Source of the DNA: an uncultured Actinomycetota bacterium
GTDB lineage: Bacteria; Actinomycetota; Actinomycetes; Mycobacteriales; Mycobacteriaceae
Direction of reading: 5' to 3'
Assembly: GCA_963778135.1 (NCBI GenBank)
Contig: CAVZTC010000009.1
Span: 1,231,826-1,263,825 of the forward strand
DNA length: 32,000 nucleotides
Both the position numbers and the translations under genes were made by a program. Below the pieces are notes generated by a model that searched no databases, was not told where the DNA came from, and saw nothing but the letters and a program-made list of their open reading frames with translations. Every line of letters starts with the position of its first letter. Position 1 is the stretch's first letter. This document shows, piece after piece, positions 10,998-32,000 of the stretch.

Positions 10998-12767
10998 GTG
11001 TTGATGGCGCCAGCCAAGAGCTCCGTAGCCACCGAACCTCGCAGTATGTTCAGTCTGCTTCGCGCTCACTGGGTCTCGATGACGGTGAGCGTGTTGTTGC
11101 TCGGCGTTGCGACCATGCTTACCTTGCTGCAGCCGCTACTGGCTGGTCGGCTCGTCGACCGCGCAGCGTCGGGCTCATCGACCCTGGCGTTGGCCGTCTT
11201 GCTGGTGATCATGCTTGTCGGACAGCTGCTCCTCGAGTGGTTAGGGCATTTCCAGCTGGGACGGACCGGCGAGCAAATCGTGTTGCGGTTGCGAGCTGTC
11301 TTCACCGATCATGTGGTGCGCCTGCCCATCGGATTGTTGGACCGGGGTCGCACCGGAGACCTGCTGGCCCGCGGAACCAGCGACGCCAGCATGGTGCGGG
11401 AAATGCCACGCGCCTTCGCCGACATCGTGTTTGGGGTGCTGACCTTCGTCGGTGTGAGTGTTTTCATGCTCACAATTGATGCCCTCACCGTGAGTATCGT
11501 GGCAGCTGTCATGGTGGCCGTGTTCGCTGTCGGCAGCCCGTTTCTGTCACGGATCCAACGCGCCGCACTCAATCGCCAAGTCGCGCTTGGTAACTACACG
11601 GCCGCGTTGGACCGAGCCCTGGGCGCCGCTCGCACCATAAAGCTGTTCGGCGCCGAAGACCGCGAAGTAGCGGCCATCAGCTCAAGCGCGCTCGCCGCCT
11701 GTAAGTCTGGGGTTCGCATCGCGCTTTCCACCGCCGTCTTCGAATCCATTACCAGGTTGGGATTTACCGGCTCGTTTTTGGCGATCATGATTATCGATGG
11801 GAGCCGCGTCGCGGACGGTCACCTAACGGTTGGCCAGTTCGTCAGCCTGTTCGCCTTCGCTATGTACGCGAGTCAGCCCGTCACCGCCGGCTTTGTCGCA
11901 CTCACCAAACTGCGTACCGCGGCCGGTGGATATCAACATCTCAGCGCCACCCTGCGGGAACTGCCGGAAGGCGATCCACCGTCAGTTGCCGTTGCCGACG
12001 GGGTCACGAGGCCGTGCGCTGTGCAGGCAGACCAGAACACCGCGCCACTGGTCCAGTTCGAGCACGTGTCGTTTTCCTACGGCGAGGCACCCGTGCTCGA
12101 CGACGTCTCCTTCACGCTCGGCCCAGATCAGATCACCGCGCTGATCGGGCCGTCTGGCGCTGGAAAGTCAACCATCCTGGCGCTGCTGTGCCGCTTCCAC
12201 GACCCGGGCGCCGGGACGGTGCGCTGGGAAGGCCACGACTTCCGCAGCATCCCCCTCAGGGAACTCCGCGGCCGACTCGGGCTTTTGGAACAGGACGCAC
12301 CCGTGCTGCACGGCACCATCCGCGACAACCTGCTCATCGCCGACCCCGACGCCGACGACGCCGACTTATGGCTCGTCCTCGAACAGGCGAACATCGCCGA
12401 CGAAATCGCCAGTCTTCCTGAACGACTCGACACCCCCGTACTCGAACGCGGGCGCGGCCTTTCCGGTGGCCAACGCCAGCGACTAGCCCTGGGCCGTGCA
12501 TTTCTATCGCGATCGCAGCTCATCCTCATGGACGAACCAACCGCACATCTCGACCGCGCCAACGAATACGACGTCATGACCAAGCTGCTGCAGGCGCGCG
12601 GCCAACGCAGTCTCCTCGTGGTTGCCCACCGTCTCTCCACCGTGACCAATGCCGACCAAATCCTGGTTCTTCAGCACGGCCGGATCCAAGCAGCCGGCAC
12701 CCACACTGAACTATTGCGCATGCCCATTTACCGCGAACTTATCGAGCGGGAACTCGCCGCCCACTAG
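10998..12767 (+). CDS. ABC exporter, fused permease/ATP-binding half-transporter
   Basis: 589 aa with an N-terminal six-helix-type ABC membrane domain. The NBD has Walker A GPSGAGKST, a Q-loop LLEQD, the signature LSGGQRQRLALGRAF, Walker B LILMDEPTAHLD and the H-loop VVAHRLST. Candidate starts are GTG 10998, TTG 11001 and ATG 11004. Confidence 0.9.
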   Translation: MLMAPAKSSVATEPRSMFSLLRAHWVSMTVSVLLLGVATMLTLLQPLLAGRLVDRAASGSSTLALAVLLVIMLVGQLLLEWLGHFQLGRTGEQIVLRLRAVFTDHVVRLPIGLLDRGRTGDLLARGTSDASMVREMPRAFADIVFGVLTFVGVSVFMLTIDALTVSIVAAVMVAVFAVGSPFLSRIQRAALNRQVALGNYTAALDRALGAARTIKLFGAEDREVAAISSSALAACKSGVRIALSTAVFESITRLGFTGSFLAIMIIDGSRVADGHLTVGQFVSLFAFAMYASQPVTAGFVALTKLRTAAGGYQHLSATLRELPEGDPPSVAVADGVTRPCAVQADQNTAPLVQFEHVSFSYGEAPVLDDVSFTLGPDQITALIGPSGAGKSTILALLCRFHDPGAGTVRWEGHDFRSIPLRELRGRLGLLEQDAPVLHGTIRDNLLIADPDADDADLWLVLEQANIADEIASLPERLDTPVLERGRGLSGGQRQRLALGRAFLSRSQLILMDEPTAHLDRANEYDVMTKLLQARGQRSLLVVAHRLSTVTNADQILVLQHGRIQAAGTHTELLRMPIYRELIERELAAH

Positions 12768-12873
12768 TCCTCGAATAAGCGAGTCGGTGTCAGCGGAACC
12801 TTCCCGGCGTGTCCAGAGACTTTCTGGTGTGAGAACTCAGCCGGCGGCTGGTCTCTGGTGATGAGCGCAGTTG

Positions 12874-13243
12874 GCCGCCGTCATTTCGATCGACGTGATG
12901 TCTCCGCAGTATTGGCACGAGCGGTGGTGATTGAATTTATTCGCGTGATCAAGCCGAACGCGGCGGTCATGAGGTACGGTATCAAGGCGGTTGAGAATGC
13001 CGTCGAAGATCTTCTAGCGGCCGATTTGGTGGTATGCCGCCTCCATTTCGATCGGAGGGTGTGTCAGCAGTATTGGTACGAGCGGCGGTGGTTGAATTTA
13101 TGCGGGTGATGGAGTCAAACGCGGCGGTCAGTGTGTGGCGTCATCGCGCTGCCGCCTGACATGTCAACGACCTAAAGCCGAGCCATAGATAGAGCTACCA
13201 CGGCAACTGTGCCACACTATATTCCGATTAACGTGGCAGAGCC
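12874..13243 (+). mobile_element. second IS6-family 3'-end remnant, partially duplicated in tandem
   Basis: 13151-13243 aligns without gaps to 10890-10982, which is the last transposase codons, the stop, the 84-nt tail and the terminal repeat of the first IS6 copy. I counted 70 of 93 identical positions, including the block TATTCCGATT and the terminal CAG(T/A)GCC. Upstream, two ~100-bp direct repeats (12874-12975 and 13036-13137, period 162) resemble the transposase C-terminal coding part. Copy B translates PPFRSEGVSAVLVRAAVVEFMRV...AAA*, against PHFRPRRNRSGATEWLAEMAHRF...AAA* in the first copy. Confidence 0.55.
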
Positions 13244-13415
13244 CACCAACCTGACCAACCAAGCCCAACATCCAACTCGCGACCGCGCCGCGACTAACAA
13301 CCGGCCGAACCGCGGCAACACGCTGCCGCCCCCCAAAAAAACGCCAGGTCAAACGCCCGAACTGAATGTATACCCCGGAGCCATACTCTTTCGACCGAGT
13401 GATTAGGGTAGCCGG

Positions 13416-15782
13416 ATGGAACGTGATGGCCAGGCGCTTCCGCTTTCGCGGGCACAGCTAGGTATTTGGTTTGCGCAGCAAGCGGGTTTCTTCGATACGG
13501 AGTGGCCGATCGGCCTATTTCTGATAGTCGAGGCGGCTGTAGTACCTGATGTGGTTGAGCAGGCAATCCGGAGAGTAGTGGAAGAGGCTGAGCCAATCAG
13601 GGCCACTTTCTTCGAGGCGGATGGCGAGATTTACCAAAAGGTAATTGAAGACCCGGATATCGAGCTTCCGCTGTATGACCTGAGGTCCTCGAATGATCCC
13701 GTGCAGGAGGCGTACAGGATAGCGGAGTCGATCCAACGTAAGCCGATGCCGCTCGATGGCCCGTTGTTTAAATTTGCGTTATTGCGGACGAGGACCGATG
13801 AGTCCTACGTATTCCTGTGCTGCCACCATATCGTCGTCGACGGGTTCGGCATTGGAATTCTTGGGCATCGGATCGCGGCTGTCTACTCTGCACTGGTTTC
13901 TGGCGTGCCCATCCCGCCCGGGTTCTTCGGCTCGCTGCATGACCTGATTGAGTGCGAATCAGAATACGAAGCATCCGCCGAATATCACGACGATCTGGCC
14001 TACTGGAAAAGAAATCTTCCACCGGATACGGCACAGCAATATCGGTTGCCGCAGGCGACCGGAGGGGGTGATTCCGGCTGGCGCTCTGCGCCGGTACAAC
14101 TGGACCCTTCGGTTGTCGCTCGAATACAGGAGTTATCGGAGTTTTTGGGTGTTCGCCGAGCCTCGGTGACGACGGCGGCGTGCGCGCTTGTGGTGCATGA
14201 ATTGTCCGCTGGGGGCCCCGAGGTGGTGCTCGACTTCCCGGTCAGTCGGCGCGTGCGTCCGGAGTCGAAGATGGTTCCCGGCATGTTCGCCGGGGTGGTG
14301 CCTTTGGTGTTGACGGCGTCGCCGGGATCGACGGTTGCCGGTTTTTGTGAGCATGTTGACGGACGAATACGAGAAACGCTGCAACATCAGCGTTTTCCGG
14401 TGCACATTCTTGAGGGCAGGGACCGCCTCCTTGACCCGCATGGCGCGGCACAACGGGTGAATATCAATTTCATCCCGGCCGCGATGAGTGGGACCTTCGG
14501 GGGTGCGCCGGGATCGGGATTGGTGACCACTTTTGGCCCGGTGGGCCACTTTGCGCTGTTCTTCCTGCGAGCCGGTGATGAGCTGTCGCTGAGCACCGCG
14601 GGTTGCGGGCAGCCGTTTTCGAATTTCTCCGTCGCCGATTTAGCGCGTCGATTGGAGCAGGTGGTGGTGGCGATGGCCGCCGACCCCTCCCGGCGGCTGG
14701 CGTCGATGGATCTGTTGGACGGTGGTGAGCACGCCCGGCTGGACGGCTGGGGGAATCGGGCGGTGTTGACCCGGCCGGCGAGCGCACCGGTGTCGATTCC
14801 GCCGTTGTGGGCCGCCCAAGTTGCACGCACGCCGGAGGCGGTGGCGCTGACGTTCGCGGGGCGCTGCACGACGTACCGGGGGCTTGAGGAGGCGTCGAAC
14901 CGGTTGGCGCACCTGCTGGTGGGCCGGGGTGTGGGTCCGGGGCAGTGTGTGGCGCTGCTGTTTACCCGTTCCATCGATGCGATTACCGCGATTACGGCGG
15001 TGCTGAAGACGGGGGCGGCCTATCTCCCCATCGATCCGGGCCTGCCGGCGGCCCGGATCGCGTTTATGCTCGCTGATGCGGCACCGGTGGCCGCGATCAC
15101 CACCACCGCGCTGGCCGCCCACCTCGAGGGCTATGACCTGCTGGTCATCGATGTCGAGGACCCCGCCATCGACACCCAACCCGTTACCGCGCTACCGGCG
15201 CCGCGCCCCGATGACCTGGCCTACCTGATCTACACCTCGGGCACCACCGGAACCCCCAAGGGCGTCGCGGTCAGTCATGCCGGCATTCCCGACTTAGTGG
15301 CCACCCGCGCGGAGCGTCTTGGCATCGGGCCGACGAGTCGCGTCCTGCAGTTTGCTCCGTTCATCTTCGATGCGTCGGTGGTGAACCTGTGGGTTGCGTT
15401 GTTGACCGGCGCGACCGCAGTACTGCCCGCCGAGGACCAAGCGCTACCGGGCCGGGAATTAGTGGACTTGATCGTCGAGCAGAACGTCTCTCACGGGGAA
15501 TTGACGCCCACCGCGATCGCCGCCCTCCCCGAACACCGAGCTGCACGGCATGACTGTGATTGCCGGCGGCGAGGTCTGCTCGACAGACCTTGTCGCGCGC
15601 TACGCCGATGCCGGCTCCTTCATCAACTCCTACGGCCCGACCGAGGCGAGCGTGGACCTGACCATGACGGGCCCGCTGGCTGCCGATTGCGGAACGCCAC
15701 CGATTGGTTACCCGGTGTCGTGGGCGGGGTTGTTTGTCCTGGATGGCTGGTTGCGCAGGGCGCCACTGGGTGCGGTCGGTGA
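13416..15782 (+). CDS. NRPS segment 1 (starter C domain plus first part of A1); meaningful translation ends at ~15528
   Basis: ORF-track protein begins [29 protein letters not shown] (C3 motif) lies at 13824-13844 and [17 protein letters not shown] (A3 motif) at ~15220. After ...[10 protein letters not shown] the ORF degenerates into an Arg/Cys-rich tail, while the +1 frame continues with [14 protein letters not shown]. Confidence 0.85.
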
Positions 15783-16480
15783 ACTGTATGCCGCGGGTCG
15801 CGGTGTGGCCTATGGGTATTGGGGCCGTTCACGCGAGACCGCGTCGCGGTTTGTGGCCTGCCCATTCGGGGGAGTCGGCGAACGCATGTATCGCACCGGG
15901 GATCTGGTGTGGTGGGGTGCTGATGGGCAGTTGCGGTATGCGGGGCGCGCTGATGAGCAGGTCAAGATCCGCGGGTATCGCATTGAGCTGGGCGAAGTCC
16001 GGGCCGCGCTGGCCCAGCTTGCGGGGGTGGAGCAGGCGGTGGTGATCGCCCGTGAGGACCGTCCTGGGGATCGGCGGCTGGTGGGTTATGTGACGGGGAC
16101 GGCGGACCCGGCCGCGGTGCGTAGCGTGCTGGCCGAGCGGCTGCCGGTCTATATGGTTCCCGCGGCCGTGGTGGTGGTGGAGGCGTTGCCGTCGACGCCT
16201 AACGGCAAGCTCGACGTCCGCGCGTTGCCGGCCCCCGATTTTGGCGATGTTGACCGGTATCACGCCCCAGCGACGCCGGTTGAGGAGATCTTGGCCGGTA
16301 TTTTCGCGCGGGTCTTGGGGTTAGCGCGGGTGGGGGTCGAGGACTCGTTTTTCGAGTTGGGTGGGGATTCCCTGTCGGCGATGCGCCTGATTGCGGTGGT
16401 CAACAAGTCGTTGGGTGCTGGTCTGTCGGTGCGGACGGTGTTTGAGGAGCCGACGATCGCGGGGTTGGCGCGGCATCTCG
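13416..16480 (+). other. NRPS module 1: C(starter-type)-A1-T1
   Basis: C1 spans ~13416-14700 (HHIVVDG at 13824-13844). A1 spans ~14740-16240 ([49 protein letters not shown]). T1 spans ~16260-16480 ([18 protein letters not shown] at ~16359-16376). Frameshift 1 lies inside A1. Confidence 0.8.
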
Positions 16481-19400
16481 GCGCAGACACGGTTGCGCGT
16501 CAGCCGCTGGTGGCTGGTGAGAGGCCGGCGGTGGTGCCGTTGTCGTTTGCCCAGCAGCGGTTGTGGTTTTTGAATCGGTTCGAGGGCGGGGTCGCCACCT
16601 ACAACATCCCGGTCGCGTTTCGGGTGAGCGGGGCGCTGGATGTCGAGGCGTTCGGTGTGGCGCTCGATGATGTGATCGCCCGTCATGAGTCGCTGCGCAC
16701 CGTGTTTCCCGATCGGGAGGGTGTGCCGGTCCAGCAGGTGATACCGGCGTCGGCGGGGTTGTGGCGGCGCGGTGGTGCCGCGGTGCTGGCGGTGCCGGAG
16801 GCCGAGGTGGTCGCGGAGTTGGTGGGGTTGGCCGGGTATCGGTTTGATTTGGCCGGCGAGGTCCCGATCCGCGCGCAGATCTATGCGCTGGGCCCCGAGC
16901 AGTATGTGGTGGGGATGGTGGTGCACCACATCGCGTTTGATGGGTGGTCGCTGGCCCCGATGGTGCGTGATGTGGCCCAGGCGTACGCGGCGCGCTGCCA
17001 GGGCGGCGCCCCGGGTTGGGCGCCGTTGCCGGTGCAGTATGTCGATTACACGTTGTGGCAACGGCAGTGCTTGGGCGAGGAGTCTGATCCGCACAGTGCG
17101 ATCGCCGCGCAGTTGGCCTACTGGCGCCAGGAGTTGGCGGGGCTGCCGCAGGTGGTGTCGCTGCCCACCGATCGGCCCCGTCCGGCGGTAGCCAGTTACC
17201 GCGGTGATGCGGTGGCGCTGGTCATTGAGGCGCCGGTGTGGGCGGGGGTCAAGGCGCTGGCCGCCGAGCACAACGCGACGCCCTCGATGGTGTTGCAGGC
17301 GGTCATGGCGGTGGTGTTGGCCAAGGCCGGGGTCGGTTCGGATGTGGTGATGGGTTCGGTGATCGCCGGGCGTTTGGATGAGGCGCTCGATGATCTGGTC
17401 GGGTTTTTCGTCAACACCTGGGTGTTGCGGGTCGGTGTCGAGGCCGGCGACCGGTTCGGTGAGGTGTTGGCGCGGGTGCGCGACAAGGCGCTGAATGCCT
17501 ACACCCATCAGGAGATTCCGTTTGAGTTGCTGGTGGAGCGGCTCAACCCGGTGCGTTCAGCGGCGCATCATCCGCTGTTTCAGGTGTGCATGGTGCTCCA
17601 GAACAATGCGCTCCCCGAGCAGATTGCGCTGGACGGGGTCGCCGTTGAGCCGCTGGCGACGTCCACCCACACCGCCAGGTTCGACCTGGACATCCAGCTG
17701 TGGGAGGTGCCCACCGGGGATCCGGGGGTGTCGATGGCCGCCGGTGCGGTGACCTATGCCACGGATTTGTTTGACCGGGCCAGCATCGAGCGGTTGGTCG
17801 GCTGGTTCGCGCGGGTCCTGCAAGCGGTCATCGCCAATGCCTTGGTGCCCGTCGCAGAGGTGTCGTTGCTGGATGCCGGTGAGCGTGATCGGGTGCTGTC
17901 CGACTGGTCTGGCGCCCAGGTGGAGGCGCCGGTAGGGGTGGCGCCGGCGTTGCTGGCTGCCGCGGTGGCCGCTGACCCGGACGCGGTGGCGGTCATCGAC
18001 GGCGACCGGCAGCTGTCGTATCGCGAGCTTGATGAGTGCTCGACGCGGTGGGCTCGGGTGCTGATCGAGACCGGGGTGGGTCCCGAGCGCGCAGTGGGTG
18101 TGGCGACGGGTCGGTCTGTGGAGTTGGTGGTCGCCTGGTGGGCGGTGGCCAAGGCCGGCGGGACCTATGTGCCGGTGGATCCGACCCATCCGGTGGCGCG
18201 GGTCGCAGCGGTATTGGATGCGGTGAGCGCGGAGTGTGTGTTGACCTGTGGTGTCGACACCATGGCCGCGGCCGGGGCCCGCCCGGTGCTGCGCATGGAT
18301 GTTTCAGACGCCCTGGACGTGTCCGCGCGTTCCGCGGAACCGATCACCGATGCCGAGCGGCTGGCGCCGCTGACGGTGGACAACTCCGCGTATGTGATCT
18401 TCACGTCCGGGTCTACCGGTGTCCCCAAGGGGGTGGCGGTCAGCCACGCCGGTCTGCTCGGGCTGGCCGCCGCGCTACGGGCGGTGTTCGAGGTGGATGC
18501 CGGTGCGCGGATCCTGATGGTGGCCGCACCGACCTTCGATGCCTCGATTAGCGAGATGTTGGTGGCGGTGGAGTCGGGGGCGGCGCTGGTGGTGGCGCCG
18601 CCGGAGGTGTATGCCGGTGCGGCGTTGACCGCGTTGCTGGCCGAGCAGCGGGTCAACGCCGCGAAATTGACCCCGTCGGTGCTGGCGACGCTGGATCGGG
18701 CCCGACTGGGCGGATTGGGCACCGTGGTCGTCGCCGGTGAGGCGTGCCCGGCGGAGTTGGTGCACACCTGGGTGCCGGGCCGGCGGATGGTCAACGCCTA
18801 CGGCCCCACCGAGGCCACCGTCTGGGCGACCTGTGCACGACTCGTGGCGGGCCAGCCCGTTACCATCGGCGCTCCGCTTGCGGGGGCGTGCGCGCTGGTG
18901 CTCGATTCCCGACTGAATCCGGCCCCGATCGCGGTGGTGGGCGAGTTGTATCTGGCCGGGCCCGGTCTGGCCCGCGGTTATGTGGGCCGGGCGGGGTTGA
19001 CCGCGGAACGCTTTGTAGCCAATCCTTTCGGGGGTGCCGTTGGCCAGAACGGGACGCCGGGAACACGGATGTATCGCACCGGGGACCTGGTGCGCTGGAC
19101 CCCGGCCGGTGACCTGGAGTACCTGGGTCGCGCTGATGCCCAGATCAAACTGCGTGGGCAGCGTATCGAGTTGGGTGAGATCGAAAACACCCTGTTGGCG
19201 TGCCCTCAGGTCAGCCAGGCCGCCGCGGCCGTGCATCACAGCGATACCGGTTCTGCGCTGGTCGCCTACATCACTGTGGAGGACACCGCCAGCCCCGATC
19301 ACGACGCCGAAAGCCTCGAAGAGTGGCAACACCTGCATGACGAGCTGTATGGCGCTGAGCTAGCCCAGGTCCCTGGGGTCCCGGGGGTCCCTGGGGTCCC

Positions 19401-22400
19401 TGGGGTCAATGGGATCGAGGCGCCGGGGTTCGGGATGGACTTTCGGGGCTGGAACAGCAGCTTTACCGGTGATCCGATTCCGCTGGAGGAGATGCTGGAG
19501 TGGCGTTCGGCCACGGTGGATCGGATCTTGGCCTTGGGGCCGCGGCGGGTGTTGGAGATCGGGGTGGGCAGCGGACTGCTGTTGTCGCAGATCGCCCCGC
19601 ACTGCGAACGCTATGTCGGCACCGATGTGTCGGGCGTGGTCATCGACAACATGGCCGGCGCGCTGCAGCGCCAGGGCCAGTGGCGGGATCGCGTCGAGTT
19701 ACACGCCCAGCCCGCTCACCTGGCTGAGGCGTTGCCGCGCGGCTATTTCGACACCATCATCGTCAACTCGGTCGTCCAGTACTTCCCGCACGCGGGGTAT
19801 CTGACCGAGGTCCTCGACACCGCGCTGGATTTGTTGGCCCCGGGTGGGGCGGTGTTTATCGGCGATGTGCGCAACCACGGCCTGGCCGCCGCGTTCTACA
19901 CCGCGGTCGTGTTGGCCGGTGCCGCCAGGTCAGAAACCTCGGATGCTATCGAGGCTGCCGAGATCAGTCAGCGGGTGCAGCGCGCGATGCTCGGCGAATC
20001 CGAATTGTTGTTGGCGCCGGAGTTTTTCACCGGTTGGGCCGGGGGTCAGGCGGTGGTGGCCGGGGTCGATATCGAAGTCAAGCGGGGATCGGCTGATAAC
20101 GAACTGACCCGGTATCGCTACGACGTCGTCATTCACACGGCCCCCACCGGGGTGTGTTCGCTGGCCACCGCGCCGGTGTGGGCGTGGGCCGACTGTGCGG
20201 GTCTGGACGGGCTGGGCGCCCGGTTGCAGTCCGGGCCTCGTACCGCGGTGCGCGTTACCGCCATCCCGGCCAGGGGGCTGTTCACCGACGTGCGTCGGCA
20301 CGCCGCCGTCGACGCCGCGGTGGCCGCGGGGGTTGCGCTGGGCGAGGTACTCGCCGACACCGACACTGGGGTCCCCCTGGCGGTGACCACTGAGCAGCTG
20401 CATCGCCTGGGTGAGGCCAGCGGGTATCGCGTCGCGGTCACCTGGGGTGCCCAGCCCGGCACGTTGGACGCGGTTTTCCTGGCTGCCACCGAGGCGGATG
20501 GTGAGCCCATGGCGGCGTTGACCGATATCTACCTGCCCGCGGCCGGGGATCGGCCGTACGCCAATGATCCGCAGATCACCGCCAAAGTCGGCGCGGTGCG
20601 GGCGCGGTTGAGTGCGTGGTTGCCCGAGTACATGGTGCCGGCGCACCTTGTGGTGCTTGACCAGTTTCCGTTGACGTCGTCGGGCAAGCTCGACCGTAAC
20701 GCGTTGCCGGCGCCGGTGTTTGACGCGAAACCGTTCCGGGCGCCGGCGACGCGGACCGAGGAGATCGTGGCCGGGGTGTTCGCGCAGGTGCTGGGCCTGG
20801 GTCGGGTCGGGCGCGACGACGACTTCTTTGCCCTGGGTGGGGATTCGTTGAGCGCCACTCGGGTGGCCGCGCGGTTGCAGGTCGCGGCGGGCAGTCAGGT
20901 GTCGGTGCGGTCGTTGTTCGAGGCGTCCACCGTCGCGTCGCTGGCCGAGTATCTGGGCCGCGATGGCGGTGGGCCGGTGCGCCCGCCGTTGGCGGTGATG
21001 ACGCGTCCGGCGGTGGTGCCGTTGTCGTTTGCCCAGCAGCGGTTGTGGTTCCTGGACCGGTTGGAGGGCGGGGTCGCCACCTACAACATTCCGGTCGCGT
21101 TTCGGGTGAGCGGGGCGCTGGATGTCGAGGCGTTCGGTGCGGCGCTCGATGATGTGATCGCCCGCCATGAGTCGCTGCGCACCGTGTTTCCCGATCGGGA
21201 GGGTGTGCCGGTCCAGCAGGTGATACCGGCGTCGGCGGGGTTGTGGCGGCGCGGGGGTGCCGCGGTGGCGGCGGTGCCGCACGACGAGGTGGCCGCGGAG
21301 TTGGTGGGGTTGGCCGGGTATCGGTTTGATTTGGCCGGCGAGGTCCCGATCCGCGCGCAGATCTATGCGCTGGGCCCCGAGCAGTATGTGGTGGGCATGG
21401 TGGTGCACCACATCGCGTGTGATGGGTGGTCGCTGGTCCCGATGGTGCGTGATGTGGCCCAGGCGTACGCGGCGCGCTGCCAGGGCGGCGCCCCGGGGTG
21501 GGCGGCGTTGCCGGTGCAGTATGTCGATTACACGTTGTGGCAACGGCGGTGGTTGGGCGAGGAGTCTGATCGGCACAGTGTGATCGCCGCGCAGTTGGCC
21601 TATTGGCGCCAGGAGTTGGCGGGGCTGCCGCAGGTGGCGTCGCTGCCCAGCGATCGGCCGCGTCCGGCGGTGCCCAGTTACCGCGGTGATGCGGTGGCGC
21701 TGGTTATTGAGGCGCCGGTGTGGGCGGGGGTCACGGCGCTGGCGGCGGCGCACAACGCGACGGCGTCGATGGTGTTGCAGGCGGTCATGGCGGTGGTGTT
21801 GGCCCGGGCCGGGGCCGGCGACGACATCGTGTTGGGTTCGGTGATTGCCGGGCGGTTGGATGAGGCGCTCGATGATCTGGTCGGGTTTTTCGTCAATACG
21901 TGGGTGTTGCGGGTCGGTGTGGAGGCCGGCGACCGGTTCGGTGAGGTGTTGGCGCGGGTGCGGCGCAAGGCGCTGGATGCCTACACCCATCAGGAGATTC
22001 CGTTTGAGTTGCTGGTGGAGCGGCTCAACCCGGTGCGTTCAGCGGCGCATCATCCGCTGTTTCAGGTGTGCATGGTGTTCCAGAACAATGCGCGCCCCGA
22101 GCAGGTCGCGCTGGACGGGGTCGCGGTGGAGCCGTTGGCGACGTCGACCCGGACCGCCAAGTTCGACCTGGATTTCCAGCTCAGCGAAATGCCCACCGGC
22201 GATCCGGGGGTGTCGATGGCCGCCGGGGTGGTGACCTATGCCACGGATTTGTTTGACCGGGCCAGCATCGAGCGGTTGGTCGGCTGGTTCGGGCGGGTGT
22301 TGGAGGCGGTGATCGCTGATGCCTCGGTGGTGGTCGGCGACGTGGCGTTGCTGGATGCCGGTGAGCGCGCCCGCCTGGATGGGTGGGGCAACCGCGCGGT

Positions 22401-25400
22401 GTTGACCCGGCCGGCCCCGACACCGGTGTCGATTCCGGTGCTGTGGGCCGCCCAAGTCGCGCGCATCCCTGAGGCGGTGGCGGTGACGTTCGAGGACCGC
22501 TGCATGACGTACCGGGAGCTTGATCAGGCCGCTAACCGGCTGGCGCATCTGTTGGTCGCCCAGGGTGTGGGTCCGGGACAGTGTGTGGTGCTGCTGTTTA
22601 GCCGTTCCATCGAGGCGATTGCGGCGATGTTGGCGGTGCTGAAGACGGGGGCGGCGTATTTGGCGATCGATCCGGGTCTGCCGGCGGCCCGGATCGGGGT
22701 GATCGTTGCCGATGCTGCGCCGATCGCCGCGGTGAGCACCGCCGGGCTGGCCGAGCGCCTCGACGGGTGTGTGCTGGTCATCGATGTCGGTGATATCTGG
22801 GCCCCCGCTGGTGACAGCCACCCGGTCGCCGCGTTGGCGCCACCGGCCGGTGAGGACATCGCGTACATCATTTACACCTCGGGGACTACTGGTGCGCCCA
22901 AGGGTGTGGCTGTGGCTCACCGCAACGTGACCCAGCTGTTGGAGGCGCTGGATGGCGAGGTGCCGCGTGCGGGGGTGTGGACGCAGTGTCATTCGTTGGC
23001 GTTCGACTTTTCGGTGTGGGAGATCTGGGGTGCGCTGCTCGGTGGCGGGCGGTTGGTGGTGGTCTCGGAGTTGGTGGCCCGCTCACCGGAGGACTTCCAT
23101 GCCTTATTGGTCGCTGAACGGGTCAGCGTTTTAAGTCGGACCCCGTCGGCGTTTTATACGTTGCCGGCCCCTGATGCGCTGGGGTCTGGGCGGGCAGATC
23201 AGCTGGCGGTTGAGGTTGTGGTGTTCGGCGGGGAAGCGCTGCAACCGCAGCGTTTGGGGTCGTGGCTGGATCATCCGGGATCGCCGCGGCTGATCAACAT
23301 GTATGGCATCACCGAGACGACGGTGCATGCGTCGGTGCGCGAGATCGGGATCGGTGATGTCACCAGCATCGCCAGTCCTATTGGGGTGCCGTTGGCGCAT
23401 CTTGGGTTTTTTGTGCTGGACGGGCGGCTCAATCCGGTGCCGGTGGGTGTGGTGGGGGAGTTGTATGTCGCCGGGTCGGGGTTGGCGTATGGGTATGTGC
23501 GCCGGGCCGGGTTGAGCGGGTCGCGGTTTGTGGCGTGTCCGTTCGGGAGTCCGGGGGCGTCGGGAACGCGGATGTATCGCACTGGGGACGTGGTGCGCTG
23601 GACTGCCCGGGGTGAGCTGGAGTACCTGGGTCGTGCTGATGAGCAGGTCAAACTGCGCGGGTATCGCATCGAGTTGGGGGAGATCGAAAACACCTTGTTG
23701 GCGTGTCCGCAGGTCAGCGGGGCCGCCGCCGCGGTGTATCACAGCGACACCGGTTCGCAGCTGGTCGCCTACATCACCGTCGGCGACACCGCCGGCTCCG
23801 AGCGTGACACCGAAAGCGTCGAAGAGTGGCACGAGCTGTATGACGAGTTGTATGGCGCTGAGCTAGCCCAGGTCCCTGGGGTTGAGGCGCCGGGGTTCGG
23901 GATGGACTTTCGGGGTTGGAACAGCAGCTTTACCGGTGATCCGATTCCGCTGGAGGAGATGATCGAGTGGCGTTCGGCCACGGTGGATCGGATCATGGCC
24001 CTACAACCGCGGCGGGTGTTGGAGATCGGGGTGGGCACCGGACTGCTGTTGTCGCAGATCGCCCCGCACTGCGATCACTATGTCGGCACCGATATGTCGG
24101 GCGTGGTCATCGAGAACCTGGCCCACGCGGTAGAGAGTCAGGGCCAGTGGCGCGATCGTGTCGAGTTGCGCGCCCAGCCCGCTCACCTGGCTGAGGGGTT
24201 GCCGCGCGGCTATTTCGACACCATCATCGTCAACTCGGTCGTCCAGTACTTCCCGCACGCGGGGTATCTGACCGAGGTCCTCGACACCGCGCTGGATTTG
24301 TTGGCCCCGGGTGGGGCGGTGTTTATCGGCGATGTGCGCAACCACGGCCTGGCCGCCGCGTTCTACACCGCGGTCGTGTTGGCCGGTGCCGCTAGGTCAG
24401 AAACCTCGGATGCTATCGAGGCTGCCGAGATCAGTCAGCGGGTGCAGCGCGCGATGCTCGGCGAATCCGAGTTGTTGTTGGCGCCGGAGTTTTTCACCGG
24501 TTGGGCCGGGGGTCAGGCGGTGGTGGCCGGGGTCGATATCGAAGTCAAGCGGGGATCGGCTGACAACGAACTGACCCGGTATCGCTACGACGTCGTCATT
24601 CACACGGCCCCTACCGGGGTGTGTTCGGTGGCCACCGCGCCGGTGTGGGCGTGGGCCGACTGCGCGGGTCTGGACGGGCTGGGCGCCCGGTTGCAGTCCG
24701 GGCCTCGTACCGCGGTGCGGGTGACCGCCATCCCGGCCAGGGGGCTGTTCACCGACGTGCGTCGGCACGCCGCCGTCGACGCCGCGGTGGCTGCGGGGGT
24801 TGCGCTGGGCGAGGTACTCGCCGACACCGACACTGGGGTCCCCCTGGCGGTGACCGCTGAGCAGCTGCATCGCCTGGGTGAGGCCAGCGGGTATCGCGTC
24901 GCGGTCACCTGGGGTGCCCAGCCCGGCACGTTGGACGCGGTTTTCCTGGCTGCCACTGAGGCGGATGGTGAGCCCATGGCGGCGTTGACCGATATCTACC
25001 TGCCCCCGGCGGGGGCCGGAGACCGGGCGCACGCCAATGATCCGCAGATCACCGCCAAAGTCGGCGCGGTGCGGGCGCGGTTGAGTGCGTGGTTGCCCGA
25101 GTACATGGTGCCGGCGCACCTTGTGGTGCTCGAGGCGTTCCCGGTGACGTCGTCGGGCAAGCTCGACCGTAAAGCCCTGCCGGCGCCGGTGTTGGACGCG
25201 AAACCGTTCCGGGCCCCGGCGACGCGGACTGAGGAGATCGTGGCCGCGGTGTTCGCGCAGGTGCTGGGCCTGGGTCGGGTCGGGCGCGACGACGATTTCT
25301 TTGCCCTGGGTGGGGATTCGTTGAGCGCCACTCGGGTGGCCGCGCGGCTGCAGGTGGGGTCGGGCAGACGGGTGTCGGTGCGGTCGTTGTTTGAGGCGCC

Positions 25401-26835
25401 CACGGTGGCTGGTCTGGCTGAGTATCTGGGCCGGGAGGGTCAGGGGCCGGTGCGTCCGCCGTTGGCGGTGATGACGCGCCCGGCGGTGGTGCCGTTGTCG
25501 TTTGCTCAGCAGCGGTTGTGGTTTTTGAACCGGTTGGAGGGCGGGGTCGCCACCTACAACATCCCGGTCGCGTTTCGGGTCAGCGGGGCGCTGGATGTCG
25601 AGGCGTTCGGCGCGGCGCTCGATGATGTGATCGCCCGCCACGAGTCGCTGCGCACCGTGTTTCCCGATGAGGACGGTGTGCCGGTTCAGCAGGTGATACC
25701 GGCGGGGGTGGGGTTGTGGCGGCGCGGAGGTGCCGCGGTGGAGGCGGTGCCGGAGGCCGAGGTGGTCGCGGAGTTGGTGGGGTTGGCCGGGTATCGGTTT
25801 AATTTGGCCGGCGAGGTCCCAATTCGGGCGCAGATCTATGCGGTGGGCCCCGAGCAGTACGTGGTGGGGATCGTGGTGCACCACATCGCTATTGATGGGT
25901 GGTCGCTGGCCCCGATGGTGCGTGATGTGGCCCAGGCGTACGCGGCGCGCTGCCACGGTGTGGCCCCGGGGTGGGCGCCGTTGGCGGTGCAGTATGTCGA
26001 TTACACGTTGTGGCAACGGCAGTGGTTGGGCGAGGAGTCTGATCCGCGCAGTGTGATCGCCGCGCAGTTGGCGTATTGGCGCCAGGAGTTGGCCGGTGTG
26101 CCCCAGGTGGTGTCGCTGCCCAGCGATCGGCCGCGCCCGGCGGTCGTCAGTTACCGCGGTGATGCGGTGGCGCTGCGTATCGAGGCGCCGGTGTGGGCGG
26201 GGGTCAAGGCGCTGGCCGCCGCGCACAACGCGACGGTCTCGATGGTGTTGCAGGCGGTCGTGGCGGTGGTGCTGGCCCGCGGCGGGGCCGGTGACGACAT
26301 CGTGTTGGGTTCGGTGATCGCCGGGCGGTTGGATGAGGCGCTCGATGATCTGGTCGGGTTTTTCGTCAACACGTGGGTGTTGCGGGTCGGCGTGCACCCC
26401 GCAGACCAGTTCGGTGAGGTGTTGGCGCGGGTGCGACGCAAGGCGCTGGATGCCTACACCCATCAGGAGATTCCGTTTGAGTTGCTGGTGGAGCGGCTCA
26501 ACCCGGTGCGCTCAGCGGCGCATCATCCGCTGTTTCAGGTGTGCATGATTTTCCAGAACAATGCGCGGCCCGAGGCGGCGCTGCAGGGCGTCGCGGTGGG
26601 AGCCGCTGGAGATGTCGACCCGGACCGCCAAGTTCGACCTGGATATCGAGCTGGGCGAGGTGGATACCGGCGATCCGGGGGTGTCGATGGCCGCCGGGTT
26701 CGTGTCGTATGCCACGGATTTGTTCGACCGGGCCAGCATCGAGCGGTTGGTCGGCTGGTTCGGGCGGGTCCTGCAGGCGGTCATCGCCGACCCGTCGGTG
26801 GTGGTCGGCGACGTGGCGTTGCTGGATGCCGCTGA
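15550..26835 (+). CDS. NRPS segment 2 (rest of A1-T1, modules 2 and 3, most of C4); meaningful translation runs ~15529-26598
   Basis: 3761-aa ORF containing [36 protein letters not shown], three [11 protein letters not shown] carrier motifs, three HHIAxDGWS condensation motifs and two embedded methyltransferases. After ...GVAV at 26598 the ORF turns into an Arg/Gly-rich tail, while the +1 frame continues with [15 protein letters not shown]. Confidence 0.9.
19330..20566 (+). other. embedded SAM-dependent N-methyltransferase domain MT2 (inserted between A-domain core motifs A8 and A9/A10)
   Basis: [17 protein letters not shown] is the SAM-binding motif I (VLExGxGxG). [15 protein letters not shown] matches the NRPS N-MT core motif NELSxYRYxAV. 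The domain is flanked upstream by [20 protein letters not shown] (A8) and downstream by LPEYMVP...SSGKLDR (A9/A10). Confidence 0.85.
19369..19413 (+). repeat. in-frame 9-bp tandem repeat, 4 good copies plus 1 degenerate, encoding (VPG)n
   Basis: The repeat reads GTCCCTGGG GTCCCGGGG GTCCCTGGG GTCCCTGGG GTCAATGGG and encodes [15 protein letters not shown]. The paralogous site in module 3 (about 23868-23880) has a single VPG; [11 protein letters not shown] there corresponds to [23 protein letters not shown] here. Confidence 0.9.
19417..22360. repeat. ~2.9-kb direct repeat, copy a (MT2-A2 tail-T2-C3)
   Basis: Matches 23884-26835 at offset 4467. The offset grows to 4473 after a 6-nt indel near 20540/25010 and to 4474 after the extra G at 26598-26600. 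The antisense ORFs 19930..21990 and 24397..26463 in the track are near-identical. Confidence 0.85.
20962..23832. repeat. 2.87-kb direct repeat, copy 1 (T2-C3 linker, C3, A3 core)
   Basis: Matches 28706-31576 at a constant offset of 7744 nt. By hand I counted roughly 30 mismatches, nearly all in the first ~900 bp. In the supplied track the antisense ORF translations 22039..22992 and 29783..30736 are letter-for-letter identical. Confidence 0.9.
21003..25430 (+). other. NRPS module 3: C3-A3(interrupted by MT3)-T3
   Basis: C3 spans ~21003-22340 (HHIACDG at 21406-21426). The A3 core spans ~22375-23832 ([41 protein letters not shown]). MT3 spans ~23833-25038. The A3 tail runs to ~25190. T3 spans ~25210-25430. 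Confidence 0.85.
23833..25038 (+). other. embedded SAM-dependent N-methyltransferase domain MT3
   Basis: [17 protein letters not shown] and [15 protein letters not shown] are present. Over most of its length it differs from MT2 by only two residues (the stretch [21 protein letters not shown]...ALTDIYLP). Confidence 0.85.
23884..26835. repeat. ~2.9-kb direct repeat, copy b (MT3-A3 tail-T3-C4)
   Basis: See copy a. Confidence 0.85.
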
Positions 26836-28700
26836 GCGTGATCTGGTGCTGTCCGACTGGTCCGGCGCCGGTGTGGGGGCGCCGATAGGGGTGGTGTCGG
26901 CGTTGCTGGCGGCCGCGGTGGCCGCTGACCCGGACGCGGTGGCAGTCATCGACGGCGAGCGGCAGCTGTCGTACCTGCAGCTTGATGAGTGCTCGACGCG
27001 GTGGGCTCGGGTGCTGATCGAGACCGGGGTGGGTCCCGAGCGCGCGGTAGGCGTGGCGATGGACCGGTCTGTGGAGTTGGTGGTGGCCTTCTGGGCGGTG
27101 GCCAAGGCCGGCGGGGTGTATGTGCCGGTGAATCCGGCGCATCCGGTGGCGCGGGTCGCGGCGGTGCTCGACGCGGCCGGGGCGGTGTGTGTGGTGACCT
27201 GTGGTGTCGACACCGTGGCCGGGGCCGGGGCCCGCCCGGTGCTGCGGATCGATGCTTCGGACGCTGCCGACGTGTCCGGGCGGAGCGCGCAGCCGATCAC
27301 TGACGCTGAGCGGCTGGCGGCGTTGACGGTGACTAACACGGCGTATGTGATGTTCACGTCCGGGTCCACCGGTGTCCCCAAGGGGGTGGCGGTCAGCCAC
27401 GCCGGTCTGCTGGGGCTGGCCGCCGCACTGCGGGCGGTGTTCGGGGTGGGTGCCGACGCGCGGGTATTGATGGCGGCCGCGCTGACCTTTGATGCCTCGG
27501 TCGGCGAGTTGTTGGTGGCGGTGGAGTCGGGGGCGGCGCTGGTGGTCGCGCCGCCGGAGGTGTATGCCGGTGCGGCGTTGACGGCGTTGCTGGACGAACA
27601 GCGGGTGAGCACCGCGCTGTTGACCCCGACGGTGCTGGCGACGCTGGATCGGGCCCGGCTGACCGGGCCGCAGGCGTTACACACGCTGGTCGCTATCGGG
27701 GAGGCCTGCCCGCCGGAGGTGGTGGACGCGTGGGCGCCGGGCCGGCAGATGTTCAACGCCTACGGCCCGACCGAGGCCAGCGTGTGGGCCACCTGTGCAC
27801 GACTGGTGGCGGGTCAGCCGGTCAGTATCGGCGCCCCGCTTGCGGGGGCGTGTGTGCTGGTGCTCGATGCCCGGCTGAACCCGGCCCCGGTGGGGGTGGT
27901 GGGCGAGTTGTATCTGGCCGGGCCTGGTCTGGCGCACGGTTATCTGGGCCGGGCGGGGTTGACCGCGGAACGCTTTGTAGCCAATCCTTTCGAGGACGCC
28001 GTTGGCCAGAACGGGACGCCGGAAACACGGATGTATCGCACCGGGGACCTGGTGCGCTGGACCCCCCGAGGTGACCTGGATTATCTGGGTCGCGCTGATG
28101 CCCAGATCAAACTGCGTGGGCAGCGTATCGAGTTGGGTGAGATCGAAAACACCCTGTTGGCGTGCCCGCAGGTCAGCCAGGCCGCCGCGGCCGTGCATCA
28201 CAGCGACACCGGTTCGCAGCTGGTCGCCTACATCACCGTGCAGCACCCCGCCAGCCCCGAGCGCGACACCGAAACCCTCGACGAATGGCCGCACCGGTAT
28301 GAGGAGCCGGATGGCGCTGAGGACACCACACTGAGCGCGGTGCGGGCGCGGTTACGTCAGTGGTTGCCCGAGTACATGGTGCCGGCACACATCGTGGTGC
28401 TCGAGGCATTCCCGGTCACGTCGTCGGGCAAGCTCGACCGTAAAGCGTTGCCGGCGCCGGTGTTTGACGCGAAACCGTTCCGGGCGCCGGCGACGCGGAC
28501 CGAGGAGATCGTGGCCGGGGTGTTCGCACAGGTGCTGGGCCTGGGTCGGGTCGGGCGTGACGACGACTTCTTTGCGCTGGGTGGGGATTCGTTGAGCGCC
28601 ACGCGGGTGGCCGCGCGGCTGCAGGTCCCGTTGGGCAGGCAAGTGCTGGTGCGGGCGTTGTTTGAGGCGCCCACCGTGGCTGATCTGGCCGACCATCTGC
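25470..28700 (+). other. NRPS module 4: C4-A4(no MT, scar)-T4
   Basis: C4 spans ~25470-26835 (HHIAIDG at 25879-25899; frameshift 2 at 26598-26600). A4 spans ~26880-28440 and is a paralogue of A2 ([31 protein letters not shown]). T4 spans ~28480-28700. Confidence 0.8.
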
Positions 28701-31700
28701 AGCGCCATGGCGGTGGGCCGGTGCGACCGCCGTTGGCGGTGATGACGCGTCCGGCGGTGGTGCCGTTGTCGTTTGCCCAGCAGCGGTTGTGGTTCCTGGA
28801 CCGGTTCGCCGGCGAGGTGGGCACCTACAACATTCCGGTCGCGTTTCGGGTGAGCGGGGCGCTGGATGTCGAGGCGTTCGGTGCGGCGCTCGATGATGTG
28901 ATCGCCCGCCATGAGTCGCTGCGCACCGTGTTTCCCGATCGGGAGGGTGTGCCGGTCCAGCAGGTGATACCGGCGTCGGCGGGGTTGTGGCGGCGCGGGG
29001 GTGCTGCGGTGGCGGCGGTGCCGCACGACGAGGTGGCCGCGGAGTTGGTGGGGTTGGCCGGGTATCGGTTTGATTTGGCCGGCGAGGTCCCGATCCGCGC
29101 GCAGATCTATGCGCTCGCACCCGAGCAGTATGTGGTGGGCATGGTGGTGCACCACATCGCGTGTGACGGGGGGTCGCTGGTCCCGATGGTGCGTGATGTG
29201 GCCCAGGCGTACGCGGCGCGCTGCCAGGGCGGCGCCCCAAGCTGGGCGGCGTTGCCGGTGCAGTATGTCGATTACACGTTGTGGCAACGGCGGTGGTTGG
29301 GCGAGGAGTCTGACCCGCACAGTGTGATCGCCGCACAGTTGGCCTATTGGCGCCAGGAATTGGCGGGGCTGCCGCAGGTGGCGTCGCTGCCCACCGATCG
29401 GCCGCGTCCGGCGGTGCCCAGTTACCGCGGTGATGCGGTGGCGCTGGTTATTGAGGCGCCGGTGTGGGCGGGGGTCACGGCGCTGGCGGCGGCGCACAAC
29501 GCGACGGCGTCGATGGTGTTGCAGGCGGTCATGGCGGTGGTGTTGGCCCGCGGCGGGGCCGGCGACGACATCGTGTTGGGTTCGGTGATCGCCGGGCGGT
29601 TGGATGAGGCGCTCGATGATCTGGTCGGGTTTTTCGTCAATACGTGGGTGTTGCGGGTCGGTGTGGAGGCCGGCGACCGGTTCGGTGAGGTGTTGGCGCG
29701 GGTGCGGCGCAAGGCGCTGGATGCCTACACCCATCAGGAGATTCCGTTTGAGTTGCTGGTGGAGCGGCTCAACCCGGTGCGTTCAGCGGCGCATCATCCG
29801 CTGTTTCAGGTGTGCATGGTGTTCCAGAACAATGCGCGCCCCGAGCAGGTCGCGCTGGACGGGGTCGCGGTGGAGCCGCTGGCGACGTCGACCCGGACCG
29901 CCAAGTTCGACCTGGATTTCCAGCTCAGCGAAATGCCCACCGGCGATCCGGGGGTGTCGATGGCCGCCGGGGTGGTGACCTATGCCACGGATTTGTTTGA
30001 CCGGGCCAGCATCGAGCGGTTGGTCGGCTGGTTCGGGCGGGTGTTGGAGGCGGTGATCGCTGATGCCTCGGTGGTGGTCGGCGACGTGGCGTTGCTGGAT
30101 GCCGGTGAGCGCGCCCGCCTGGATGGGTGGGGCAACCGCGCGGTGTTGACCCGGCCGGCCCCGACACCGGTGTCGATTCCGGTGCTGTGGGCCGCCCAAG
30201 TCGCGCGCATCCCTGAGGCGGTGGCGGTGACGTTCGAGGACCGCTGCATGACGTACCGGGAGCTTGATCAGGCCGCTAACCGGCTGGCGCATCTGTTGGT
30301 CGCCCAGGGTGTGGGTCCGGGACAGTGTGTGGTGCTGCTGTTTAGCCGTTCCATCGAGGCGATTGCGGCGATGTTGGCGGTGCTGAAGACGGGGGCGGCG
30401 TATTTGGCGATCGATCCGGGTCTGCCGGCGGCCCGGATCGGGGTGATCGTTGCCGATGCTGCGCCGATCGCCGCGGTGAGCACCGCCGGGCTGGCCGAGC
30501 GCCTCGACGGGTGTGTGCTGGTCATCGATGTCGGTGATATCTGGGCCCCCGCTGGTGACAGCCACCCGGTCGCCGCGTTGGCGCCACCGGCCGGTGAGGA
30601 CATCGCGTACATCATTTACACCTCGGGGACTACTGGTGCGCCCAAGGGTGTGGCTGTGGCTCACCGCAACGTGACCCAGCTGTTGGAGGCGCTGGATGGC
30701 GAGGTGCCGCGTGCGGGGGTGTGGACGCAGTGTCATTCGTTGGCGTTCGACTTTTCGGTGTGGGAGATCTGGGGTGCGCTGCTCGGTGGCGGGCGGTTGG
30801 TGGTGGTCTCGGAGTTGGTGGCCCGCTCACCGGAGGACTTCCATGCCTTACTGGTCGCTGAACGGGTCAGCGTTTTAAGTCGGACCCCGTCGGCGTTTTA
30901 TACGTTGCCGGCCCCTGATGCGCTGGGGTCTGGGCGGGCAGATCAGCTGGCGGTTGAGGTTGTGGTGTTCGGCGGGGAAGCGCTGCAACCGCAGCGTTTG
31001 GGGTCGTGGCTGGATCATCCGGGATCGCCGCGGCTGATCAACATGTATGGCATCACCGAGACGACGGTGCATGCGTCGGTGCGCGAGATCGGGATCGGTG
31101 ATGTCACCAGCATCGCCAGTCCTATTGGGGTGCCGTTGGCGCATCTTGGGTTTTTTGTGCTGGACGGGCGGCTCAATCCGGTGCCGGTGGGTGTGGTGGG
31201 GGAGTTGTATGTCGCCGGGTCGGGGTTGGCGTATGGGTATGCGCGCCGGGCCGGGTTGAGCGGGTCGCGGTTTGTGGCGTGTCCGTTCGGGAGTCCGGGG
31301 GCGTCGGGAACGCGGATGTATCGCACTGGGGACGTGGTGCGCTGGACTGCCCGGGGTGAGCTGGAGTACCTGGGTCGTGCTGATGAGCAGGTCAAACTGC
31401 GCGGGTATCGCATCGAGTTGGGGGAGATCGAAAACACCCTGCTGGCGTGTGCGCAGGTCAGCGGGGCCGCCGCTGCGGTGTATCACAGCGACACCGGTTC
31501 GCAGCTGGTCGCCTACATCACCGTCGGCGACACCGCCGGCTCCGAGCGTGACACCGAAAGCGTCGAAGAGTGGCACCACGACCCGCAGATCACCAGCAAA
31601 CTCAGCGCCGTGCGTGCGCAGTTAAGTGCATGGTTGCCCGGGTACATGGTGCCGGCGCACATTGTGGTGCTCGAGGCGTTTCCGGTGACGTCGTCGGGCA

Positions 31701-32000
31701 AGCTCGACCGTAAAGCCTTGCCGGCGCCGGTGTTTGACGCGAAACCGTTCCGGGCGCCGCGGACCCGGACCGAGGAGATCGTGGCCGGGGTGTTCGCCGA
31801 GGTGCTGGGCCTGGGTCGGGTCGGGTGTGATGACGATTTCTTCGCTCTGGGTGGGGATTCGTTGAGCGCCACTCGGGTGGCCGCGCGGCTGCAGGTGGCT
31901 TTGGACAGACGGGTGTTGGTGCGGTCGTTGTTCGAGGCGTCTACCGTCGCCGATCTGGCCGACCATCTGCAGCGCCATGGTGGCGGGCCGGCCCGCCCCC
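26600..32000 (+). CDS. NRPS segment 3 (end of C4, A4-T4, C5-A5-T5), open at the right edge
   Basis: Not in the ORF track because it has no stop codon in the window. My translation in the frame of position 26600 reads [64 protein letters not shown]... It continues through [28 protein letters not shown], two [11 protein letters not shown] motifs, [26 protein letters not shown] and [11 protein letters not shown]. It ends ...[14 protein letters not shown] at 31999. Confidence 0.85.
28706..31576. repeat. 2.87-kb direct repeat, copy 2 (T4-C5 linker, C5, A5 core)
   Basis: See copy 1. Identity ends abruptly at GAAGAGTGGCAC (23821-23832 and 31565-31576), the point where MT3 begins in module 3. Confidence 0.9.
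28747..31970 (+). other. NRPS module 5: C5-A5(no MT, scar)-T5
   Basis: C5 spans ~28747-30090 (HHIACDGGS from 29150). A5 spans ~30120-31700 and is near-identical to the A3 core. T5 spans ~31750-31970 ([11 protein letters not shown]). The window ends exactly where the earlier modules begin their next C domain, so at least one more C domain is expected beyond 32000. Confidence 0.8.

Follow-up and report, generated by a model that had tools for sequence, protein, structure and literature searches.

Natural removal of a methyltransferase (MT) embedded in an adenylation (A) domain of a nonribosomal peptide synthetase (NRPS) is already known from mcyA. In Anabaena the N-methyltransferase (NMT) segment of mcyA has been deleted (Fewer et al. 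2008), and Planktothrix has mcyA genotypes without the NMT (Kurmayer et al. 2005); these variants are associated with Dha7 and Dhb7 microcystins (both reviewed in PMC8097286 Fig. 1a and PMC6950048 section 5.6). We studied a 32,000-nt stretch of DNA (the window; assembly GCA_963778135.1, contig CAVZTC010000009.1, positions 1,231,826 to 1,263,825) from an uncultured member of the Mycobacteriaceae, in which a mycobacterial NRPS coding region runs on the positive strand from 13416 to the window end. A combined Pfam and core-motif map divided this region into five modules, M1 to M5. M2 and M3 carry an MT inside the A domain, and the sequences point, with a probability of about 85%, to an in-frame loss of the embedded MT in M4 and a separate loss in M5. 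What is new relative to mcyA is the genus, the presence of two scars beside intact paralogues and the recurrence in mycobacteria.

The likeness to McyA, as the two reviews describe it, is that an A-domain-embedded MT was removed by natural deletion more than once. There, by the same reviews, the synthetase stays productive and a non-methylated congener is made, whereas in the window retained function is predicted from sequence. The window also differs in belonging to Mycobacterium and not to cyanobacteria, in having two adjacent modules with different breakpoints and MT-bearing paralogues in one gene, and in that remnants of both MT edges could be mapped. M2 and M3 have the architecture of TioS (structure 5WMM), interrupted between motifs a8 and a9, with the 'VEKW..YD..Y' motif, the S-adenosylmethionine (SAM) motif and the tail all aligned; M4 and M5 differ from TioS in that they would derive from this type of architecture, with the MT core gone and 27-32 residual residues left. 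The mps1-type synthetases of lipopeptides and glycopeptidolipids (GPL) resemble the window in genus, in the condensation (C) domain at the gene start and in the MT in module 2, and the lipopentapeptide (L5P) of M. avium subsp. paratuberculosis has N-methyl-Val at position 2 (PMC8103206). The starter module of the window is ~61% identical to that of the GPL-type locus L084, which has MbtH, glycosyltransferase and methyltransferase genes; L084 (GPL-like) and a further locus with a ~61% identical starter module, L085, were tried as helpful relatives and rejected, being different clusters. Unlike the mps1 type, the window has at least five modules with a repeated two-module unit, an ABC transporter and PPE genes upstream, and no glycosyltransferase genes there. 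Finally, engineered Ecm6 constructs, in which M domains were put into uninterrupted A domains (PMC9056781), use the same a8-a9 site, and the tolerance of that loop supports the view that a leftover of ~30 residues is harmless; those constructs add M domains, whereas the window would represent the reverse operation, made naturally.

Alignment of the five A8-to-A10 segments showed ~430 extra residues in M2 and M3 between '..LVAYITV' and 'AVRARL..LPEYMVP'. Pfam detected condensation, AMP-binding and PP-binding domains along the NRPS and a methyltransferase twice, and gave no MT match in the A8-A9 interval of M4 or M5; the SAM motif VLEIGVGSG lies inside the M2 unit. M4 is 1218 nt (406 codons, a multiple of three) shorter than M2. 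Its scar, at 28241-28336, consists of the first 27 codons of the MT unit fused in frame to about its last 5 (DTTLS), so that 32 residues stand between '..LVAYITV' and 'AVRARL', and codons 28-432 of the M2 unit are absent. The DTTLS peptide corresponds to the end of the MT tail (..ITAKVG in M2, ..ITSKLS in M5) and is one codon shorter. The elements involved were as follows.

28088 to 28240, positive strand: A8 motif and Asub beta-hairpin of M4 (...LVAYITV), the final A-domain stretch before the scar (motif map, alignment, AlphaFold2 (AF2) model)
28241 to 28321, positive strand: left remnant of M4, the initial 27 codons of what was the MT unit (counterpart of M2 19279-19359, also aligned with M3)
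28322 to 28336, positive strand: M4 junction and putative right remnant DTTLS (DNA alignment, length accounting)
28337 to 28450, positive strand: M4 A domain resumes, with the helix, A9 LPEYMVP and A10 SSGKLDRK, all motifs intact (motifs, alignment, AF2 model)
19279 to 20592, positive strand: intact MT unit of M2, 438 codons (Pfam Methyltransf_12/23/25/11; alignment to TioS 5WMM, E 4e-87)
23782 to 25065, positive strand: intact MT unit of M3, 428 codons (Pfam and alignment)

In a self-BLASTn comparison M2 (16139-19359) matched M4 (25091-28321) with 85.8% identity over 3238 nt; the match spanned the left remnant, ended at 19359/28321 and restarted at ~20591/28335. The scar had been proposed in a first-pass annotation of this DNA, which described an in-frame scar in M4 where M2 has an MT of ~1.2 kb and a homology that jumps directly to the post-MT sequence. 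Both statements held: the flanks align around the 1218-nt difference and the homology resumes at ~28335 (M2 20591), the breakpoint being mapped by alignment to 28321/28322. The 53-letter peptide quoted there is encoded at 28226-28384 in frame 2. Other details needed correction. The segment of M4 homologous to the MT2 start is real, but it begins further left than proposed, at 28241, and the 11-mer shared by the modules (ATGGCGCTGAG) is at 28311-28321 in M4, as given, but at 19349-19359 in M2 instead of 19347-19357, and is found also in M3, at 23852. The A8-to-A9 interval of M4, put at only ~35 aa, measured 92 aa from motif start to motif start, as compared with 87 aa in M5, 66 aa in M1 and 498 aa in M2. 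In 426 comparison A domains this distance had a median of 68 aa and a 95th percentile of 78 aa, placing M4 and M5 in the top ~1.5%. Once the remnants were subtracted, the interval was exactly 60 aa in all four modules M2-M5. M4 and M5 are thus unlike a canonical uninterrupted A domain, with a loop that is too long (canonical, about 65-75 aa) and with MT-edge residues present: the unit edges ('E.W..YD.LY' before the MT and '..NDP.T.TK..' after it) are partly kept, as 27 left and ~5 right residues in M4 and as 18 and 9 in M5.

We compared these residues with A domains of both kinds. The M2 A8-A10 segment aligned end to end with the interrupted structure 5WMM of TioS(A4aM4A4b), with 'EHVEKWRAIYDSMY' opposite the M2 segment, and the alignment extended over all of the M2 interval, the EEW..YD..Y motif included. 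Uninterrupted A domains of solved structure (LgrA, PvdL, TycC, EntF, GrsA and others) aligned only to M2 residues 1-52 and 488-532, i.e., outside residues 53-487. In 36 independent MT modules of other mycobacteria both edges were contiguous with the MT and highly conserved, with a right-edge consensus LTDLYLPP.G....HANDP.TNTKIS. The W..YD.LY motif occurred in none of the 426 uninterrupted A8-A9 intervals, ~240 of which are from close mycobacterial, Nocardia and Rhodococcus relatives, so the remnant segment is not a normal part of the uninterrupted A domains of this clade. A profile of the left MT edge, built from the 36 modules outside the window and run against 429 uninterrupted A8-A9 intervals, ranked M4 first (11.5 bits, E 0.005) and M5 second (11.0 bits, E 0.007), the third best reaching 3.8 bits. 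These comparisons assign the retained residues to the MT unit rather than to a normal A domain. Loss of the embedded MT is well supported because 5WMM aligns throughout, the uninterrupted A domains skip the segment and none of the other 426 have the remnant residues.

M5 bears a scar of its own, overlooked in the first-pass annotation, at 31526-31606 (27 residues, 18 + 9). It is 1203 nt shorter than M3, again a multiple of three, with the junction mapped to 31576-31580.

31526 to 31579, positive strand: left remnant of M5, 17 residues plus the junction His (alignment; runner-up in the MT-edge profile)
31580 to 31606, positive strand: right remnant DPQITSKLS of M5, the final 9 codons of the MT tail (~81% identical to M3 25039-25065)
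29591 to 31576, positive strand: near-identical copy of 21847-23832, pairing late C5 and the A5 core with late C3 and the A3 core

The M4 scar holds 9 more left-edge codons and the M5 scar more of the right edge; neither can be derived from the other, and therefore at least two events took place. The left remnant of M5 is identical to M3 up to 31576 (= M3 23832) and belongs to a tract shared by A3 and A5 with 7 mismatches in 1986 nt (99.65%), whose identity stops exactly at the M5 junction; beyond it, the right remnant is only about 81-88% like M2 and M3. Two histories fit: a recent conversion tract from M3 that extended up to a pre-existing heterology, or a tract that reached into the MT and was followed by a very recent deletion. 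Similarity among the modules is mosaic, with the C2-C5 and Asub-T segments (T, thiolation domain) 85-98% alike, which indicates, at the sequence level, concerted evolution or gene conversion. A model with a single block insertion, by which the core of an MT4 would have been exchanged for everything between the MT2 end and the MT3 start, was rejected because the block (20591-23832 / 28335-31576) is itself mosaic and not uniformly young: it is 79-84% identical in the T region and 99.65% only from 21847 on (79-100% overall).

The sequence of events would then be the following. MT is taken as ancestral to this module type because other mycobacteria widely carry MT-bearing A2-like modules whose edges are conserved in the same way (36 sequences), and the paralogues M2 and M3 as well as these 36 MT modules of relatives retain it at exactly the M4 site. 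In M4 an in-frame deletion of ~1.2 kb (406 codons relative to M2) would have joined unit codon 27 (...YGAE) to about the last five, leaving a loop of ~30 residues in place of a 438-residue domain, between the Asub hairpin (..LVAYITV) and the A9 helix (AVRARL..LPEYMVP). In M5 another, independent deletion, amounting to 1203 nt when compared with M3, would have used other breakpoints (...EEWH|H|DPQITSKLS). Illegitimate or short-homology recombination, or slippage, may have produced both, and gene conversion would later have made A5 uniform with A3 as far as the heterology, unless the M5 deletion is very recent. Short tandem repeats are found at or next to the corresponding positions of the MT-bearing modules: in M2 a (GGTCCCTGG)x4.4 array (19368-19407), a 9-nt repeat present in the N-terminal linker of MT2 only, begins 9 nt past the M4 left breakpoint, and in MT3 a 12-bp x2 repeat (ELYD-ELYG, 23831-23854) begins where the M5 left breakpoint falls. 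The position of these repeats may be a coincidence.

The cores of A2 and A4 had 85% aa identity, a dS (synonymous divergence) of 0.23 and a dN/dS (nonsynonymous to synonymous ratio) of 0.38. The paralogy of A4 and A2, already noticed in the first-pass annotation, is evident at the DNA level, and this divergence makes A4 an old paralogue rather than a fresh copy. The left remnant of M4 shared only 13 of 27 aa with M2, against 366 of 430 for the A core (Fisher p=1.9e-5), and had a dN/dS of ~1.9. These ratios indicate constraint on the cores and relaxed constraint on the remnant, in which four of the six most conserved edge positions have changed (Q>P, D>E, L>P and Y>D). Because of this decay the M4 deletion is probably old, and the divergence of the remnant fits a relaxed constraint following an old loss.

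Similar scars were found in relatives. Two related metagenome-assembled mycobacteria have them at 13600-13700 of locus L083 and 10300-10330 of locus L082. In L083 (protein P0013), the sequence reads ..AYIILERTT|PTGHQRRHTPPPTDLYLPPTGVDQRTTRANDPRTDTEIS|AVRQRL, and ~40 residues from the MT tail are retained (45 bits, E 1e-13, with the right-edge profile). L082 is orthologous to L083 (87% identical over 10 kb, with downstream genes in common), and its scar, ..AYIT..ERAATHANDPQINTEIG|AVHRQL, is 72 nt shorter. A 10-nt direct repeat, CGCACCACCC, flanks in L083 roughly the segment absent from L082; the repeat and the shorter L082 scar hint at stepwise trimming. By flanking similarity (77.9% to 15622-19273) the scarred module matches M1-M2 of the window; in a relative, therefore, the MT has been lost from a module whose counterpart here still bears it. 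The four scars (M4, M5, L083 and L082) keep different, partly non-overlapping ends of one unit, for which deletion is the only explanation: nested unit ends that differ between genes are what repeated deletion predicts and what insertion cannot yield.

A further excision scar is probable in P0001, from the isolate Mycobacterium sp. E2733, where the tail of an MT from a second class remains in a 94-aa A8-A9 interval near residue 1361 (DSLAECVDDPSAIER, corresponding to GSLAGYVNDPSAIER in P0037 and P0050). Among proteins of the European Nucleotide Archive (ENA), P0057 and P0064 have flanks 97.5% identical; module 1 of P0057 has a full MT and that of P0064 a clean short loop, GAPDLDTA, identical to the loop of module 2. 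This pair looks like a presence/absence polymorphism of the MT and suggests scarless loss or gain by inter-module recombination. Other candidates were discarded: those from a regular-expression search in P0129/L081, L004 and P0026 were frameshift artefacts, and P0004 and P0050 have the second MT class with its core present. Scanning genome contigs with the M4 A8-A10 peptide gave 80 loci, the best 61-70% identical and all MT-bearing or ordinary; protein searches returned, beyond the 788-aa ORF of the window itself (100%), matches of ≤62%; and neither the M4 nor the M5 junction had an exact match in the JGI metagenomes scanned.

The description of M4 as a natural de-interruption, offered in the first-pass annotation as loss of an embedded MT that kept the reading frame, is upheld by the remnant edges, the 0/426 count, the 5WMM alignment and the nested scars, with the amendments that M5 is separately scarred and that mcyA is a precedent. 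Some observations weigh against this reading. Both junctions are known from the assembled sequence alone. The assignment of the M4 right remnant as MT tail is weak because it has only ~5 residues. No convincing microhomology was seen at the M4 and M5 breakpoints; only matches of 2-4 nt are possible, and divergence of the right flanks makes these ambiguous. The collections searched held no close orthologue of the cluster (best ~60% aa identity) and no MT-bearing true orthologue of M4, and therefore the pre-deletion state of M4 was not observed. The activity of A4 and A5 is deduced only from intact motifs and an open frame. Lastly, because of two single-base frameshifts the NRPS is spread over three open reading frames (ORFs), so the gene could be a pseudogene: one frameshift is at ~15530 (15528-15535) in A1, within a C-run, and the other at ~26598 (26596-26600) in C4, where GGTGGGAG has an extra G relative to GGTGGAG in C2, C3 and C5.

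That the whole synthetase is a decaying pseudogene, with the MT deletions as part of the decay, would be compatible with MT loss, though not with a functional remodelling, and would accommodate the two frameshifts and the decayed M4 remnant, but we consider it unlikely: both frameshifts fall in short homopolymer runs, as long-read errors typically do, the gene is otherwise open over 18.6 kb with every core motif intact, the A2/A4 cores show the dN/dS of a constrained sequence, and both large deletions are multiples of three. The window comes probably from a long-read metagenome bin, so that the frameshifts are more likely to be sequencing errors and the near-identity of A3 and A5 may have been inflated by polishing. 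The same origin bears on the idea that the scars, or that near-identity, arose from mis-assembly or polishing of a repetitive gene. Related contigs (L081-L083) are riddled with frameshifts, those of the window are homopolymer-associated and multi-mapped reads could raise the A3/A5 identity; however, both junctions join non-homologous positions exactly in frame, unlike a repeat collapse, the M4 flanks are 14% diverged from M2 so that reads would not be confusable, and a similar scar is present in an isolate genome (P0001). An artefact of this kind is highly improbable.

Two other histories concern the origin of the MT residues. If M4 and/or M5 had never borne an MT, a conversion tract from M2 or M3 could have imported the MT start and been sealed illegitimately; the gene plainly undergoes intragenic recombination, and the 99.65% A3/A5 tract stops right at the M5 junction. 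Past that junction, however, M5 keeps nine MT-tail codons which, being only ~81-88% like M2 and M3, are older than the tract; in M4 the left remnant has diverged further than the A core, contrary to a recent import; and the 60 aa left after subtraction of the remnants match the interrupted modules and not the 66 aa of M1, so that this history seems very unlikely. Gain of the MT, with M4 and M5 preserving an ancestral linker into which the core was inserted in M2 and M3 after duplication, could draw on the cores of MT2 and MT3, which are 97-99% identical at the DNA level and could resemble a recent shared acquisition, but this likeness fits the concerted evolution seen along the modules. The same edges flank the MT in the 36 modules of other mycobacteria, which answers the concern that it entered M2 and M3 after the duplication, and in TioS, from another genus; the supposed pre-insertion linker is in 0/426 uninterrupted A domains, and the four nested scars would need four different pre-existing partial sequences. 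We regard such a gain as scarcely credible.

The positions of the modules and of the coding region, the modules by core-motif scan, were:

13416 to 32000, positive strand: NRPS coding region, still open at the window end and distributed over three frames owing to the two frameshifts
A8 at 15943 and A9 at 16141, positive strand: M1, C-A-T
A8 at 19126 and A9 at 20620, positive strand: M2, C-A(MT)-T
A8 at 23629 and A9 at 25093, positive strand: M3, C-A(MT)-T
A8 at 28088 and A9 at 28364, positive strand: M4, C-A-T
A8 at 31373 and A9 at 31634, positive strand: M5, C-A-T

Upstream of the NRPS there are genes for an aldehyde dehydrogenase, an FHA-domain protein, PPE/pentapeptide-repeat proteins and an ABC transporter. 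The PPE genes, together with the closest database matches, assign the window to Mycobacterium. At 8170-10306 a gene of the PPE family that has pentapeptide (MPTR) repeats overlaps the next ORF, which consists of pentapeptide repeats only, and the two may be one gene split by a further frameshift. Just upstream of the ABC-transporter ORF there is a 98-nt sequence (10886-10983) that recurs with 76% identity at 13147-13244, ~170 nt upstream of the NRPS start, and between both copies there is a 71-nt direct repeat (12899-12969 and 13060-13130, 85% identity). These repeats may be shared regulatory regions; an Rfam scan of window positions 1-14000 gave no match.

As to the function of A4 and A5, the reading frame stays open from 26549 until the window ends, and the A9/A10 motifs and the GGDSL motif of the T domain are present past the scars. 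In the AF2 model of the M4 Asub-T segment (81-sequence alignment; mean predicted local distance difference test score, pLDDT, 86) the hairpin strands (E47-57 and E60-69) had pLDDT >90 and the A9 helix (95-110) ~94, and the remnant (residues 70-94) was modelled as coil with pLDDT 57-68. The a8-a9 region of A domains has been called 'incredibly tolerant' of insertions in engineering work (PMC9056781). We infer that A4 and A5 still adenylate and load amino acids; residues 4 and 5 of the product are therefore predicted to be non-N-methylated and residues 2 and 3 N-methylated.

A broader proposal is that MT excision is recurrent and variable in its breakpoints, so that N-methylation by mycobacterial lipopeptide synthetases would be turned off one residue at a time. 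We offer it tentatively, as a possible but doubtful extension of the MT losses in M4 and M5. Scars would be trimmed progressively, from 40 aa in L083 through ~17 aa in L082 to none in P0064; the two-module duplicate would make one dipeptide in an N-methylated (M2-M3) and a non-methylated (M4-M5) form; and the natural breakpoints would be ready-made functional templates for de-interruption of A domains.

If A4 and A5 are active, the window would contain two natural, sequence-resolved returns of an interrupted A domain to a working uninterrupted form, and their intact parents M2 and M3, in one gene, would allow a direct comparison. Together with L083, L082 and P0001, the scars of the window would offer engineers at least four different tolerated junctions to copy. 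Cell-surface lipopeptides are antigenic in M. avium subsp. paratuberculosis. The scars suggest that the N-methylation patterns of mycobacterial cell-surface lipopeptides may change by simple deletions.

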